DNA from: a bacterium
GTDB taxonomy: Bacteria; Patescibacteriota; Microgenomatia; Levybacterales; UBA12049
Length of the DNA: 64,000 bases
Assembly: GCA_021777565.1 (NCBI GenBank)
Contig: JAJYDJ010000001.1
Location: 160,142 to 224,141, forward strand
Direction of reading: 5' to 3'
Under the pieces are notes generated by a model. It ran no database searches, was not told the origin of the DNA, and saw nothing but the letters and a program-made list of their open reading frames with translations. Position numbers and translations under genes: made by a program. Positions 7,846-33,926 of the stretch are shown here, piece by piece. Each line of letters begins with the position of its first letter. Position 1 is the first letter of the stretch.

Positions 7846-9308
<1,463 letters not shown>

Positions 9309-19127: not shown

Positions 19128-19132
19128 AACTA

Positions 19133-19216
19133 TGCATTCAGAGAGATAGGAGAGTATCGGCTCGTACCTATCCGGCAACCCTTCATAGCATGGGTGCCAA
19201 ACCGACATAGAATGTG
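19133..19216 (+). promoter_or_regulatory. SAM-I-clan (S-box-like) riboswitch in the metK 5' leader
   Basis: P1 TGCATTC...GAATGTG; conserved blocks AGAGAGATAGGAGAG (compare AAGAGAGGUGGAGGGA), CCGGCAACC (J3/4 GGCAACC) and GGGTGCCAA (compare UGGUGCCAA); located 15 nt upstream of the metK ATG. Confidence 0.5.
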
Positions 19217-19230
19217 ATTTTAGATAAACT

Positions 19231-20337
19231 ATGCAAGACTACACGTTTACTTCAGAATCTGTTTGTAGCGGACACCCCGATAAAGTGTGTGATCAAATAA
19301 GTGATGGTATCGTCGATGCAGTCCTTTCAAAAGATCCTCGTGGGAGGGTTGCGATGGAAGCACTCGTTACTGAAAATAAGATTGTACTCGCAGGAGAAGT
19401 GACGACTTCTGCAAAAGTTGATTTTGAAGCTATCACTAGGCAAGTTATAAAAGACCTAGACTATACTGATTCTCGATTTCGATTTACTCATGAATCTTCT
19501 CTGGACATGTATATCCACGAGCAGTCTCCTGAAATTGCTGCTGGCGTAGATGAAGAAGGAGCTGGAGATCAAGGGATGATGTTTGGGTATGCGTGTCATG
19601 AAACACCTGAGCTGATGCCATTACCAATCACACTTGCTCATCGTATGGCGCAGAAAATTGACGATGTAAGAAAATCTAAAGTCATTGCATATCTTCGCCC
19701 TGATGGGAAGACACAGGTGAGTGTACGATATGAGAATGGAAAGCCTGTCGCTATTACATCGGTTGTCATTGCTGTCCCTCATGAGGAAGAGAAGCAATTA
19801 AAAGAAGTACGCAATAGCTTGTATAGAGAAGTTGTCAGTCCTGTTTTGGCCGCGTATGGTTTTACATTCCCAGAGGATCAAGTCATTGTGAATGGAACAG
19901 GCATTTGGCACATTGGCGGACCGGCCAGTGATACAGGACTTACAGGGCGTAAAATTGTTGTGGATGGCTATGGTGGGTATGCCAGGGTAGGTGGGGGTGC
20001 TTTTTCTGGGAAAGACCCAACAAAGGTTGATCGATCAGGGGCGTATGCTGCACGATTTCTGGCAAAAAATATTGTTGCAAAAGGGTTAGCAGAGAGAGCT
20101 GAAGTGAGACTAGCTTACTTTATCGGAGCAAAAAAACCGTTGATGCAAGACGTTGAAACATTCGGAACAGAAAAAGTCTTGAGAGAACATATTCAAAAGT
20201 TCATGCATGAGATTTTAGATACATCAGTCGCTGGTATCCTCAAAACGTTGAATTTACGAACACCTATCTATAAAAATACTGCTGCCTATGGGCATTTCGG
20301 TCGGAGTGAGTTCCCGTGGGAAAAAATTGTGGCATGA
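19231..20337 (+). CDS. metK: S-adenosylmethionine synthetase
   Basis: SESVCSGHPDKVCDQISD, GAGDQGMMFGYA and GGGAFSGKDPTKVDRS motifs. Confidence 0.95.
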   Translation: MQDYTFTSESVCSGHPDKVCDQISDGIVDAVLSKDPRGRVAMEALVTENKIVLAGEVTTSAKVDFEAITRQVIKDLDYTDSRFRFTHESSLDMYIHEQSPEIAAGVDEEGAGDQGMMFGYACHETPELMPLPITLAHRMAQKIDDVRKSKVIAYLRPDGKTQVSVRYENGKPVAITSVVIAVPHEEEKQLKEVRNSLYREVVSPVLAAYGFTFPEDQVIVNGTGIWHIGGPASDTGLTGRKIVVDGYGGYARVGGGAFSGKDPTKVDRSGAYAARFLAKNIVAKGLAERAEVRLAYFIGAKKPLMQDVETFGTEKVLREHIQKFMHEILDTSVAGILKTLNLRTPIYKNTAAYGHFGRSEFPWEKIVA

Positions 20338-30585: not shown

Positions 30586-30876
30586 TTATTTAACATCTCG
30601 ACGAGCTGGCATTTTTATTGTTGCCGTAGAAGATACTCTTTCTTGATATGCAGCATCTAATGCATCTTGACTACGAGCGAAACGCTCTTCTCTCTGAGCA
30701 CGTTCTGCACGCAGTGCAGCCAAGTTTGCAGCGGTTGCAATGGCTGTTTCTGCAAGAGAGTCAGAAACAATACCTCGAGCTTGCTGCTCTTTGATGCCCT
30801 GTTCTACCAGGGGGAATGTTGCCCCGGTGATAGCTTCGATGGTTCCGTTCATTGCCATAATAGTAAGACTATACAA
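30586..30876 (-). CDS. hypothetical Ala-rich helical protein (96 aa)
   Basis: TTG start at 30876; coding-like. Possibly the N-terminal half of a disrupted gene (see findings). Confidence 0.3.
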   Translation of the reverse strand: MYSLTIMAMNGTIEAITGATFPLVEQGIKEQQARGIVSDSLAETAIATAANLAALRAERAQREERFARSQDALDAAYQERVSSTATIKMPARRDVK

Positions 30877-30924
30877 CGAAACAATAATATTGTCAAGTTA
30901 TAGACAACAATCTGGCTATTCTAG

Positions 30925-31137
30925 CCATGGACAAACGGAGGTGTTTCTGTCATACTTTTATCAAAGCTTTGGAAGGATCCCAACCTTTCTCCGTCAACCG
31001 ATGGAAAGCTGGCTGCGATGAGCAGTCCCGGAGGCAAAACCGTAAAAGATGAGTGCACCAACCAAGGTGGTACCACGCGAGTAAGCGTCCTTGTAAATGC
31101 CTGAAAACATGCAGGTGTTTATAAGGGCGTTTTTTGT
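30925..31137 (+). promoter_or_regulatory. T-box riboswitch leader (tRNA-Pro sensing) upstream of proS
   Basis: T-box sequence AAGGTGGTACCACGCG (compare AGGGUGGNACCGCG), candidate Stem I ACGGAG...CTCCGT enclosing AAGG-ATCCCAA-CCTT with a CCC/CCA Pro codon followed by a purine, then the terminator 31086-31137. Confidence 0.55.
31086..31137 (+). terminator. intrinsic terminator of the proS T-box leader
   Basis: CGTCCTTGT...ATAAGGGCG 9-bp stem (two G-U pairs) followed by TTTTTTGTT; ends 13 nt before the proS ATG. Confidence 0.5.
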
Positions 31138-31149
31138 TAGACTAAACAT

Positions 31150-32622
31150 ATGGCATATCAAAATACATTACCGAAAAAGTCAGAAGATTTATCAGCCTGG
31201 TACAACCAGATTGTGCTGTCTGCTGAACTTGCTGACTATGGTCCTGCGAAAGGCACCATGATTTTCCGTCCGTATGGCTATCGTATCTGGGAGCTTGTGC
31301 AGGAAGCTATGGACAAGCGTATCAAAGATCATGGCGTGGATAATGCGTACTTCCCACTTTTTATTCCTGAAAGTTTTCTCAAGCGTGAGAAAGAGCATGT
31401 AGAAGGATTTGCTCCTGAGCTGGCCGTTGTCACGGTCGGTGGGGGAGAAGAATTGGAAGAAAAGTTAGTAGTCAGACCTACCAGTGAGACTATCATGTAT
31501 GATGCCTACAGTCGTTGGATACAATCCTGGCGAGATCTACCAATCCTTATTAATCAGTGGAATAACGTGGTTCGTTGGGAGAAGCGAACATATCTCTTCC
31601 TTCGTACGACAGAATTTTTGTGGCAGGAAGGGCATACGGCACATGCGACCCATGAAGATGCGGTGGATACCCAGAAGTGGGCCATGCAGATGTATGCGGA
31701 TATCTATAAAGAATACTTTGCACTTCCAGGAATCGTTGGGTACAAATCACAATCTGAAAAGTTTGCAGGAGCCGACGCCACGTTAACCTATGAATCACTC
31801 ATGCCAGAAGGAAAAGCACTGCAGGCATGTACGTCCCATGATCTTGGACAAAATTTCGCCAAAGCATTTAACATCTCATTCCAGGATAAAGAGGGGAAAT
31901 CTGAATATGCCTGGCAGACGAGTTGGGGCTTTTCAACACGTTCACTTGGTGGTCTTTTCATGGCACACGGTGATGATAAAGGACTAGTCTTGCCACCGAA
32001 ACTGGCACCGATTAAAGTAGTGATTCTTCCTGTCTTAGGAAAGGATGATAAAAAAGTATTAGATTTTTGCGAGGAAATAAAAAAGTCCATTAAGGCTGTC
32101 GACTCCCAGTTCTTAGGCAAAGTTGAGGTTTTGGATCAAGATTGGAAGAGTATCGGATGGAAAGCAAGTGACGCAGAGATGAGAGGTATACCTATAATAA
32201 TTCCTGTTGGGCTCAAGGAGGCAGAAGGTGGAGACATTAAGATACAAACAAGAATTGAAGGATATTTTAAAGACGAGAATACATATGGGAATCTAGTCCC
32301 TGTTACCTCTGAAAACATTGGGGCAGAAGTCGAACGTGTCTTGTCTTTGATCCAAGGTAGATTATTAGAGAATGCCCAGAAGTTCTTAAAGGAAAATACA
32401 CATATAGTAAACTCATATGACGAGTTGAAGAAATATATGGAAACGACCAAAGGATTCTTAAAAGCATTCTGGTGTGAAGACGCGACCTGTGAATCAAAGA
32501 TCAAAGAAGAAACCAAGGCAACCACTCGCTGTCTGCCTCTTGATGCTCCCGAGGAATCCGGGAAGTGCGTCTACTGCGGGAAAGATGCCACGCATCGCTG
32601 GATCTTTGCACAAGCCTACTAA
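31150..32622 (+). CDS. proS: prolyl-tRNA synthetase, archaeal/eukaryotic-type
   Basis: Class II motifs (FRPYGYRIW, RWEKRTYLFLRTTEFLWQEGHTAH), C-terminal Zn-binding Cys cluster, no bacterial-type insertion domain. Confidence 0.93.
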   Translation: MAYQNTLPKKSEDLSAWYNQIVLSAELADYGPAKGTMIFRPYGYRIWELVQEAMDKRIKDHGVDNAYFPLFIPESFLKREKEHVEGFAPELAVVTVGGGEELEEKLVVRPTSETIMYDAYSRWIQSWRDLPILINQWNNVVRWEKRTYLFLRTTEFLWQEGHTAHATHEDAVDTQKWAMQMYADIYKEYFALPGIVGYKSQSEKFAGADATLTYESLMPEGKALQACTSHDLGQNFAKAFNISFQDKEGKSEYAWQTSWGFSTRSLGGLFMAHGDDKGLVLPPKLAPIKVVILPVLGKDDKKVLDFCEEIKKSIKAVDSQFLGKVEVLDQDWKSIGWKASDAEMRGIPIIIPVGLKEAEGGDIKIQTRIEGYFKDENTYGNLVPVTSENIGAEVERVLSLIQGRLLENAQKFLKENTHIVNSYDELKKYMETTKGFLKAFWCEDATCESKIKEETKATTRCLPLDAPEESGKCVYCGKDATHRWIFAQAY

Positions 32623-32625
32623 TCT

Positions 32626-32958
32626 ATGAAGACGCAGGATGCATTCGCCGCACTTGATATCCGGGTTGGTAAAATTATTGCCGTGTCTCTTCTGCCAAAT
32701 CCGCGCTACACCACCCATAAACTTACTATAGATTTAGGGCCAGAAATTGGTCAAAAAACATCTGGTGCACGGGTTCTTAACTATACGCAGGAAGAGCTGA
32801 TGGGAAAATTAGTACTTTGTGTGATCAATCTCCCCCCCAAACAAATTGGTGGTACTATGTCGGAAGTTCTGACGCTTGGTGTGCCTGATGCAGGGCATGA
32901 ATGTGTATTGATCTCTCCAGATAATGAAAAAGCAGTTATTGGTGGCAAACTCTACTAA
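32626..32958 (+). CDS. tRNA-binding protein (CsaA/Trbp111, EMAP-like OB fold)
   Basis: LDIRVGKII...HKLTIDLGPE...LVLCVINLPP typical of Myf/EMAP tRNA-binding domains. Confidence 0.65.
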   Translation: MKTQDAFAALDIRVGKIIAVSLLPNPRYTTHKLTIDLGPEIGQKTSGARVLNYTQEELMGKLVLCVINLPPKQIGGTMSEVLTLGVPDAGHECVLISPDNEKAVIGGKLY

Positions 32959-33926
32959 CTCAATCCCGGGATTGGGAATGGAAGCTTCAAGTTAAATATT
33001 TTAATCCACAAGACCATATATCCCAGAAGAAAAATAACAGCTCCAACAACATAAATAGCAACTGAGGTAGGACTTTTGGCTTTGGGTGCTATATAGCCAT
33101 GCACAGCATCCCCATGTTTGGCTCCACTGGCTGCTGGCGTTTCTGGAAGTGGTGGCAGTGGAGTCGTGGCAACTGGCGCTTCAGGAGTTGGTGGTGTTGG
33201 AATTGGTCCCAGGGACTCAGTGGGAGCAGGTGTCTCTGGAAGGGTTGGCACTTCTGGCTGTTCTTCTGGTGCGCTTGGCATTGGTGCTACTGGTGATGCT
33301 ACCAGATCTTCTGGTGGCATCTTGTGCTGCTCTGTTGTATCTGCTGGTGTAGTCTGAGTACTTGGGGTAGGCGTAGGTGTCGTTGATACACCTGGAATGT
33401 CCAGTGGTGGCATCACTGGTGGCTCAGGTGGTGTCCCTGGCGTAGGGGCTGCGGGAGACGTTGGGATGGATTCTGTTGGCTGCTCTGGAGTTGATGGCAT
33501 CACTGTCTCCGGAATCTCTGTTGACGTTGTTTCGGAGGGTGTTGCTACTTCCTCAGCCACCAGTTTTGGTGCTTCTACTGGCTGCTCTGGAGTAGTGGGC
33601 ATACTAGGTGTTACTTCAGGTGCTGCAGGTGTGCTTGGTGTTACGTCAGTTGGAATGGTTATCTCTGGTGCCGGTGGAGGAGGGGTTGGATTGGCAGATT
33701 GAGTAAATGGTCGATCTGATACAGATGGTGCCAATTCATCACTGGATGGCATGATCTCAGGTGCACGTTGTGTCTGTGGGGTAGCAGTTGGTGTGGCTTG
33801 ATCGCTTGGTGTCGTAGGGGTTACTGAGGGGGTACCACCCAGAACTGTGTTATAAATTTCCTGTAATTTTGGGTCAATCGTATCAGCCATGTATTCATCG
33901 TAACAACCTAGAGAAGAGAATGTCAA
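32955..33926 (-). CDS. Pro/Thr/Glu-rich low-complexity surface protein with C-terminal TM anchor
   Basis: About 250 residues of PTPxxP/TPS repeats and a C-terminal hydrophobic helix VAIYVVGAVIFLLGYMVLWI. Confidence 0.5.
   Translation of the reverse strand: MTFSSLGCYDEYMADTIDPKLQEIYNTVLGGTPSVTPTTPSDQATPTATPQTQRAPEIMPSSDELAPSVSDRPFTQSANPTPPPPAPEITIPTDVTPSTPAAPEVTPSMPTTPEQPVEAPKLVAEEVATPSETTSTEIPETVMPSTPEQPTESIPTSPAAPTPGTPPEPPVMPPLDIPGVSTTPTPTPSTQTTPADTTEQHKMPPEDLVASPVAPMPSAPEEQPEVPTLPETPAPTESLGPIPTPPTPEAPVATTPLPPLPETPAASGAKHGDAVHGYIAPKAKSPTSVAIYVVGAVIFLLGYMVLWIKIFNLKLPFPIPGLS

Follow-up and report, generated by a model that had tools for sequence, protein, structure and literature searches.

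A probable proline-specific T-box riboswitch with a strongly reduced Stem I in the leader of an archaeal-type proS gene from a Patescibacteria-like genome

The sequence considered here, hereafter the window, is a stretch of 64,000 nt from contig JAJYDJ010000001.1 (GenBank assembly GCA_021777565.1, positions 160,142 to 224,141), and coordinates given without a locus name refer to it. The gene proS is found at 31150-32622 on the plus strand and specifies a prolyl-tRNA synthetase (ProRS) of 490 amino acid residues. This protein is of the archaeal/eukaryal type, as an earlier reading of the DNA without database searches (the original prediction) had held: it scores 536 bits with TIGR00408 (proS_fam_I; cut-off 437) and possesses the Pfam domains tRNA-synt_2b, HGTP_anticodon and ProRS-C_1. 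The intergenic gap between the proS ATG (31150) and a divergent open reading frame (ORF) of 96 amino acids (30586-30876, minus strand) is 273 nt. Approximately 190 bases of this gap, directly 5′ of proS, are occupied by a leader that is most probably a proline-specific T-box riboswitch, acting through transcription attenuation and present in a strongly reduced form.

The 3′ half of the leader carries the switch itself. The T-box sequence, AAGGTGGTACCACGCG, is read at 31064-31079, where it had been noticed before, and its 7-nt bulge, UGGUACC (31068-31074), lies between helix A1 (CAAGG/CCUUG, 31063-31067 with 31089-31093) and helix A2 (ACGC/GCGU, 31075-31078 with 31085-31088). Together these constitute an antiterminator at 31063-31093, recognized from the sequence and from the Rfam alignment. 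A terminator scan reveals an intrinsic terminator at 31084-31131, consisting of a 20-bp hairpin with an 8-nt loop and six T residues (31130-31135). The hairpin had been described as having only 9 bp and ending 13 nt before the ATG; the T-run in fact stops 14 nt ahead of it. The 5′ arm of the terminator, beginning at 31084, makes use of the 3′ strands of both A2 and A1 (31085-31093), so that the two folds are mutually exclusive, as had been proposed, with computed energies of -28.4 kcal/mol for the terminator versus -9.2 kcal/mol for the antiterminator. A weak antiterminator that needs tRNA in order to prevail is the usual T-box arrangement. The folding z-score of the whole leader is -4.9. Since proS is a core translation gene and there is no room for a second promoter 3′ of the terminator, readthrough must be provided.

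The 5′ half is compact. In the minimum free energy (MFE) fold a reduced Stem I occupies 30965-31010 as a three-helix element, the base helix of which (30965-30970/31005-31010) encloses two hairpins. The first of these (30971-30989; 6-bp stem, 30971-30976/30984-30989; core AAGG-ATCCCAA-CCTT at 30973-30987) presents a 7-nt apical loop, AUCCCAA (30977-30983), containing the proposed specifier codon CCC (30979-30981) followed by a purine, A30982. The second, CCGUC-AACC-GAUGG (30991-31004), includes an alternative proline codon, CCG (30998-31000), which is also followed by A. Next comes a short Stem II, GGCUGC-GAUGA-GCAGUC (31011-31027), found in both the Rfam alignment and the MFE fold, with 6 bp and a pentaloop of the GANRA type. 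It is followed by a Stem IIA-like hairpin, CGG-AGGCAAAA-CCG (31029-31042), and an F-box-like CCGUAA (31040-31045), both of which align to the CGg...cCGUUA block of RF00230. At 31051-31061 the string GAGUG (31051-31055), 4 nt and then AA (31060-31061) correspond to the RRRxG...AA purine motif in the Rfam alignment; this motif normally flanks Stem III (as defined in PMC7583486). Upstream, at 30928-30956 (plus strand), a scan for promoter consensus only picks out TGGACA, a 17-nt spacer and CATACT, with TG ahead of the -10 hexamer. This candidate promoter would place the transcript start at approximately 30962-30965, immediately ahead of Stem I.

At the gathering threshold Rfam returns no T-box in the window. 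At E-value thresholds RF00230 matches 30960-31095 with 27.6 bits (E = 2.4e-4 locally, 0.034 window-wide over all families), and this is the sole T-box match in the 64 kb; the scan that had been suggested finds the site, at a score far under the gathering value of 93. The alignment covers the antiterminator, the AGUG...AA purine flank, the CGG...CCGUAA segment (Stem IIA and F-box) and the Stem II hairpin; in it, 34 nt stand for 87 model positions of Stem I and only 4 nt for Stem III. Related leaders with a short Stem I, described below, score 30-66 bits, likewise all below 93, and two of them (L004 and L109) give no RF00230 match at E up to 0.01.

Comparison with other genomes supports the T-box more strongly than the Rfam score does. 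Homologous leaders were sought in a genome scan with the ProRS protein as query and one genome per species. The nearest ProRS relatives are at most 65% identical; the bacterial ones are from metagenome-assembled genomes (MAGs) of Patescibacteria/candidate phyla radiation (CPR) bacteria, and the others are from DPANN archaea. Of 32 CPR-like loci, 4 (L004, L005, L016 and L017) have a T-box ahead of either proS alone or a tRNA_bind-proS pair, and a sixth proS leader with this element (L113) was recovered by a metagenome pattern scan, so that the comparison with other synthetase leaders called for in the original prediction yields five further Patescibacteria-like proS leaders with a homologous T-box. 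Used as nhmmer queries, other leaders find exactly the window site (E = 1.5e-6 for L016, 2.2e-4 for L005). From the close of Stem I through the antiterminator, the mean column identity of the window, L016 and L113 is 78%.

An alignment of whole leaders with MAFFT was structurally poor, and the comparison was made by modules instead. The Stem II sequence CUGCGAUGAGCAG is identical in the window and L005 (CUGC-GAUGA-GCAG), while L016 has GUGC-GAUAA-GCAU and L113 has CAGC-GACAA-GCUG; the compensatory changes are U-A to A-U and C-G to G-U. In L113 the IIA-like hairpin has CAG/CUG where the window has CGG/CCG, a change of G-C to A-U, and the inner A2 pairs covary as well (C-G, A-U and G-C). In all six proS leaders the UGGU bulge fits a discriminator A. 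The window, L016 and L113 all lack Stem III yet keep the RRRxG...AA purines; the loss of Stem III and the short pentaloop Stem II, common to L016 and L113, mark a conserved sub-type rather than a one-off decay. The 5′ sequence of Stem I in the window, CAAAGC-UUUGG, resembles CAAAGC-AUUGA of L016. The L113 leader (approximately 8790-8960 as oriented) consists of Stem I GCGG-UUUCCCG-CCGU, a pentaloop Stem II and a discriminator, without Stem III.

The conservation of helices bears on whether the resemblance to a T-box is due to chance or whether the region instead codes for a small protein on the minus strand (a 51-aa ORF at 30921-31076), an explanation to which we attach next to no weight. The ORF was called in one assembly, L202, and the T-box score is under the Rfam threshold; it was, however, not called in L201, the other assembly of the same sequence, and no family match is on record for it. 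What the leaders of five other genomes conserve, by compensatory changes, are RNA helices and not a reading frame, and the nhmmer E-values of 1e-6 and 2e-4 argue against chance. The unannotated RNA element probably led the gene caller to place the 51-aa ORF by mistake. Attenuation by a leader peptide was also considered and rejected, as the sole short ORF in the leader (ATG at 31001, six codons) has no proline codons.

The identity of the specifier rests on the relatives. A 4-bp stem and 7-nt loop with an in-register CCN-purine occur in 6.8% of dinucleotide shuffles, and with CCC-purine in 2.4%; comparable hairpins being this common, the specifier hairpin by itself is weak evidence and becomes convincing only through its homologues. 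In five of the six proS leaders a hairpin with a 7-nt apical loop is found directly 3′ of the 5′ GC-NUU-GA segment, the loops being AUCCCAA (window), UUCCCAG (L017) and UUUCCCG (L016, L004 and L113). All five share just two triplets, UCC and CCC; of these, CCC alone encodes proline, and CCC alone has a purine after it. In T-boxes the specifier codon is, as a rule, followed by a purine. The stems beneath these loops differ: AAGG/CCUU in the window, GCGG/CCGU in L113, and GGAG/CUUU, AGAG/CUCU and UGGG/CCCA among L017, L016 and L004. In a six-sequence alignment of the Stem I module, in which L017 was used without its insertion and some of the sequences had been chosen by structural pattern, 100% of cells pair, five of seven pairs show compensatory change, and the covariation score is 0.86, compared with 0.22 in shuffles and at most 0.25 for slid partners (the value was reached in 0 of 500 shuffles). 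The placement of the specifier in a 7-nt terminal loop, which the original prediction had proposed for the window, thus recurs as CCC-purine in L004, L016, L017 and L113, and the same build is seen in leaders for Ser, Ile, Arg and Trp.

The sixth leader, L005, differs in that its specifier loop is internal and canonical (AGUA / GAA-CCA-A), with a 4-bp GCAA hairpin as the cap above it. Being the leader most similar to the window in Stem II and the F-box, it raises the alternative that the window houses the same T-box but with CCG (30998-31000; next base A31001) as a specifier located in the 3′ part of Stem I, reading tRNA-Pro(CGG) in a side-bulge-like context as canonical T-boxes do. The layout and spacing of CAA-CCG-A-UGGA-AAGC in the window (CAA-CCG-A at 30995-31001) mirror those of GAA-CCA-A-CCCA-GGAGC in L005. 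The AGUA/GAA S-turn is nevertheless absent from the window, and part of the CCG is buried within the second hairpin of the MFE fold. Moreover, L016, L004 and L113 have no such 3′ segment and possess the apical CCC loop only, and where L017 has the corresponding CCC, the next base is U rather than a purine. An insertion hairpin occurs at the equivalent position of Stem I in L017 and in L139, its sequence not being conserved. We therefore regard CCG as the less likely specifier, although it deserves to be kept in mind. Since the apical CCC and the CCG both stand for proline, the amino acid assignment is robust, whereas that of the isoacceptor is not. For the apical CCC, the missing S-turn may, by analogy with glycine T-boxes, be rationalized by the all-G/C duplex CCC:GGG; in the glycine case such a codon-anticodon duplex has been argued to need less lateral support (PMC7583486).

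The same design is found for other amino acids. The metagenome pattern scan, which gives no class frequency, recovered at least 120 T-boxes; among the matches listed, most are ordinary leaders with a long Stem I, and a short Stem I occurs in at least seven. Apical UCC-G precedes a SerRS gene in L126, where the bulge is UGGC and a tRNA-Ser(GGA) with G73 lies on the same contig. Apical UGG-G precedes a 91-aa ORF without family in L139 (approximately 886-1835), with tRNA-Trp(CCA), bearing A73, approximately 600 nt downstream. A matching tRNA on the contig is thus available for these two class members. Apical AUC-A is found ahead of genes for IleRS (L091) and an IleRS-like protein (L151), in both instances with an S-turn-like Stem II, a feature also seen in L004. 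The codon CGC is displayed ahead of ArgH (CGC-A, L189) and of a B3_4-ArgRS fusion (L109; Pfam B3_4, tRNA-synt_1d and DALR_1), and UAC-A ahead of TyrRS in Parvimonas micra (L186).

Several of these loci have features of their own. The L109 leader contains two hairpin loops with CGC in each. The IleRS of L091 carries an inserted histidine-phosphatase domain (His_Phos_1, PGAM-like; Pfam, residues 522-683), and the same His_Phos_1 insertion is suggested for the IleRS of L151 by an RHG motif. The tyrS leader of Parvimonas micra (L186, approximately 2025-2150 as oriented) is from a cultured Firmicute; its apical loop is CUUACAA, and the distance from Stem I to the T-box is only approximately 45 nt. 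In this leader an AGGAGG Shine-Dalgarno sequence is a possible pairing partner for the 3′ strand of the antiterminator, and no convincing terminator was seen. Judged from its sequence, L186 may be a translational ultrashort T-box outside the Actinobacteria and outside ileS. An Amesbacteria MAG, L001, contains on its minus strand (2324-2600) a near-canonical T-box with a long Stem I (85.8 bits, UAC specifier), located upstream of a three-gene operon in which a TyrRS-like gene is last. This long form beside the short ones indicates that CPR genomes hold both types of Stem I, which occur in several Patescibacteria lineages. T-boxes look resident in the CPR, with patchy gain and loss, rather than borrowed from hosts, and nothing supports the regulatory exchange with hosts at which the original prediction had hinted.

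A further question is the level at which the leader acts. Among 11 other leaders scanned, 10 are followed by terminators that range from -17 to -33 kcal/mol and whose U-runs comprise at least four residues (4-7 U), the exception being L186; the L113 leader, folded separately, has no recognizable terminator ahead of the ATG. A switch that is mainly translational, the long hairpin 14 nt from the ATG blocking access of the ribosome as in the ultrashort ileS T-boxes of actinobacteria, is rather unlikely. It would agree with the description of ultrashort-class T-boxes as translational (10.1101/2023.02.28.530422), with start codons located 6-30 nt past the hairpins in the window, L004, L005 and L017, with the same Stem I occurring in L113 without a terminator, and with the AGGAGG pairing possible in L186. 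Yet the hairpins other than those of L186 and L113 are directly followed by 4-7 U, which is the signature of intrinsic termination, and there is no Shine-Dalgarno sequence ahead of proS. Of the 44 window ORFs with 200 aa or more, counted from the first ATG, only 4 are preceded by such a motif (-20 to -4), against a background of 15%, and this scarcity argues against control by Shine-Dalgarno sequestration. The 16S rRNA of the window nevertheless ends in CACCUCCUUUCU (approximately 9300) and has CCUCC. Control at the level of transcription is favored over translational control because U-runs directly follow the hairpins and Shine-Dalgarno-like motifs are scarce; occlusion of the start codon, 14 nt away, may contribute.

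Several observations weigh against a working T-box in the window. Its leader is the most degenerate of the set and, at 27.6 bits, has the lowest Rfam score among them, far below the gathering threshold of 93. The kink-turn (K-turn) consensus of the class, GC-NUU-GA...GA-GC, is found in L004, L005, L016, L017 and L113, whereas the window has GC-UUU-GG...AA-GC, and a plain 6-bp helix is predicted at the base of its Stem I instead of a K-turn. A covariance model of Stem I only, built from five other leaders, misses the window Stem I at E up to 10; this Stem I departs from the K-turn consensus and has a 17-nt insertion. Stem II in the window has no S-turn, Stem III is absent, and no convincing partner for a IIA/B pseudoknot was found in the leader. 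In published work the binding of tRNA by ultrashort ileS T-boxes is reported to depend in part on the K-turn, the S-turn and Stem III, and all three are held to be important in the ileS and glyQS models (PMC7583486). There is no tRNA-Pro gene in the 64-kb window, the only tRNAs there being Cys, Ile, His and Leu; across all loci searched, tRNA-Pro genes occur only in archaeal loci and never beside bacterial leaders. Finally, the element is lacking in close relatives of the L005 ProRS (P0092, P0101 and P0071) and of the L017 ProRS (P0142, 93% identical), which indicates that the T-box is dispensable in evolution. In L208-L211 (approximately 1000-1300), Blackburnbacteria-like loci with a ProRS 93% identical to that of L017, the T-box is gone and all that is left of the tRNA_bind ORF ahead of proS is a 3′ remnant, suggesting a recent deletion.

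These features would suit a decayed relic, in which the terminator and the T-box sequence remain, the response to tRNA has been lost, and proS is expressed through leaky termination or with the help of another factor. The lowest Rfam score of the leaders, the missing K-turn consensus, S-turn and Stem III, and the patchy distribution, including clear loss in close relatives, are what such a relic would display. A terminator of -28 kcal/mol in front of a core translation gene would, however, be costly without antitermination, the loss of Stem III and the short pentaloop Stem II are shared with L016 and L113, and the T-box bulge, the helices A1 and A2 and the purine string beside them have all stayed intact. 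On balance, decay is improbable.

The analysis establishes the individual elements in the sequence, the mutually exclusive nature of the two folds, the homology to other proS leaders, the Stem I covariation of the class and the fit of codon to gene across amino acids; tRNA binding, the choice of proline codon and control at the level of transcription are inferred. A transcription-attenuating proline T-box would operate as follows. Transcription would start near 30963, and the apical loop of the nascent short Stem I would offer CCC-A (30979-30982) to tRNA-Pro, the anticodon most likely being GGG. The short Stem II with its GAUGA pentaloop and then the Stem IIA-like hairpin would fold. If the tRNA were uncharged, its 3′ ACCA could pair with UGGU at 31068-31071 and stabilize the weak antiterminator (31063-31093), and the polymerase would read through into proS and the gene for a tRNA-binding protein that follows it. 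Were the tRNA charged or absent, the 20-bp terminator (31084-31131) with its six U residues would form and transcription would stop 14 nt ahead of the ATG.

The gene for the tRNA-binding protein (32626-32958, plus strand) begins 3 nt 3′ of proS and probably shares its operon. It specifies a CsaA/Trbp111-like protein of 110 aa with a tRNA-binding domain (PF01588, tRNA_bind), and scores with the NCBIfam “tRNA-binding protein” and CsaA models are slightly below their cut-offs. Such a gene adjoins proS in four of the six T-box proS loci: the window, L004 (2660-2986), L005 (2642-2974) and L017 (approximately 2643-2903). Among the 32 CPR-like loci it is present in three of the four with a T-box versus 1 of the 28 without (Fisher p = 0.003). 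In L019 a tRNA_bind gene (761-1093) lies behind a proC-like gene.

A more ambitious proposal is that these leaders represent an undescribed class of transcriptional T-boxes in Patescibacteria and some other uncultured bacteria. Such a class would recognize tRNA independently of its elbow, with an apical specifier, no Stem III and a pentaloop Stem II in place of an S-turn, and would serve Pro, Ser, Ile, Arg and Trp; the CsaA/Trbp111-like protein might supply the lost contact with the tRNA corner in trans, or otherwise join the switch. Taken as a whole, this proposal is a long shot.

Two other features of the window may be recorded. Convergent with the proS operon is a 323-aa ORF (32955-33926, minus strand); its product is extremely rich in Pro, Thr and Ala and has a hydrophobic segment in its C-terminal part. 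At 19129-19241 (plus strand) there is an S-adenosylmethionine (SAM)-I/IV riboswitch-like element, with 36.9 bits versus a gathering score of 41.1 (local E = 1.3e-4). It is directly upstream of a metK-like ORF and overlaps its start (19231). Going by sequence and position, this element is probably a real SAM riboswitch missed by the curated thresholds.

In the open literature no paper was found that links T-boxes with Patescibacteria, CPR or Saccharibacteria, subscription papers being outside the scope of the search, so that an earlier description is possible. A short tRNA-reading stem, here placed ahead of a transcription terminator, is described in the same literature only for translational control of isoleucine genes. 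The window leader and its relatives break the division drawn there between transcriptional T-boxes with a long Stem I platform and ultrashort translational ones of ileS: they join an apical-loop specifier to a strong intrinsic terminator, and do so for proline as well as for at least four further amino acids. If functional, the window leader and its relatives would be among the smallest natural tRNA-sensing transcription switches (approximately 130 nt to the end of the antiterminator), and reduced Patescibacteria genomes would indeed monitor tRNA charging. They would raise the question of how a co-transcriptional decision is made without the fast elbow contact. Curated models miss the window leader and its relatives, every one of which scores under the Rfam threshold, and these leaders make a concrete case for building the T-box covariance models anew for uncultured lineages.

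By comparison, the canonical transcriptional T-boxes (RF00230), such as those of tyrS and glyQS in Bacillus subtilis, share with the window leader the UGGNACC bulge between A1 and A2, the terminator built on the 3′ strand of the antiterminator, the U-run, a codon-purine specifier that fits the downstream aminoacyl-tRNA synthetase, the F-box-like CCGUAA, the RRRxG...AA motif and the position directly 5′ of the gene. They differ in possessing a long Stem I with an AG bulge, a distal loop and a double T-loop platform that contacts the tRNA elbow; none of these motifs is found in 30960-31010. They also have a specifier-loop S-turn, Stem III and the K-turn consensus, all three of which the window leader lacks. 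The elbow platform has been called generally required for transcriptional T-boxes, ultrashort Stem I's being assigned to the translational ones (PMC7583486). The T-boxes of the glyQS type, which lack Stem II, follow a shared logic in that an all-G/C duplex (GGC:GCC there, CCC:GGG here) may dispense with the S-turn, but they keep the long Stem I with its platform and Stem III, neither of which is present in the window leader.

The likeness to the ultrashort ileS T-boxes of actinobacteria (Mycobacterium tuberculosis, M. smegmatis and Nocardia farcinica; class II in TBDB), which the original prediction had noted, holds in part. Common to both are a short Stem I without the distal platform on the tRNA elbow, a terminal loop that presents the specifier with a purine after it, and Stem II and Stem IIA-like elements 3′ of Stem I. 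The likeness fails in that the ultrashort T-boxes are described as translational and as specific to ileS and tRNA-Ile, and possess a long S-turn Stem II and a IIA/B pseudoknot; those of this class are reported all to regulate ileS (10.1101/2023.02.28.530422), and TBDB models “class II” from ileS of Actinobacteria only. The window leader, in contrast, is joined to proS, has an intrinsic terminator and a 6-bp Stem II with a GAUGA pentaloop, and belongs to a Patescibacteria-like host.

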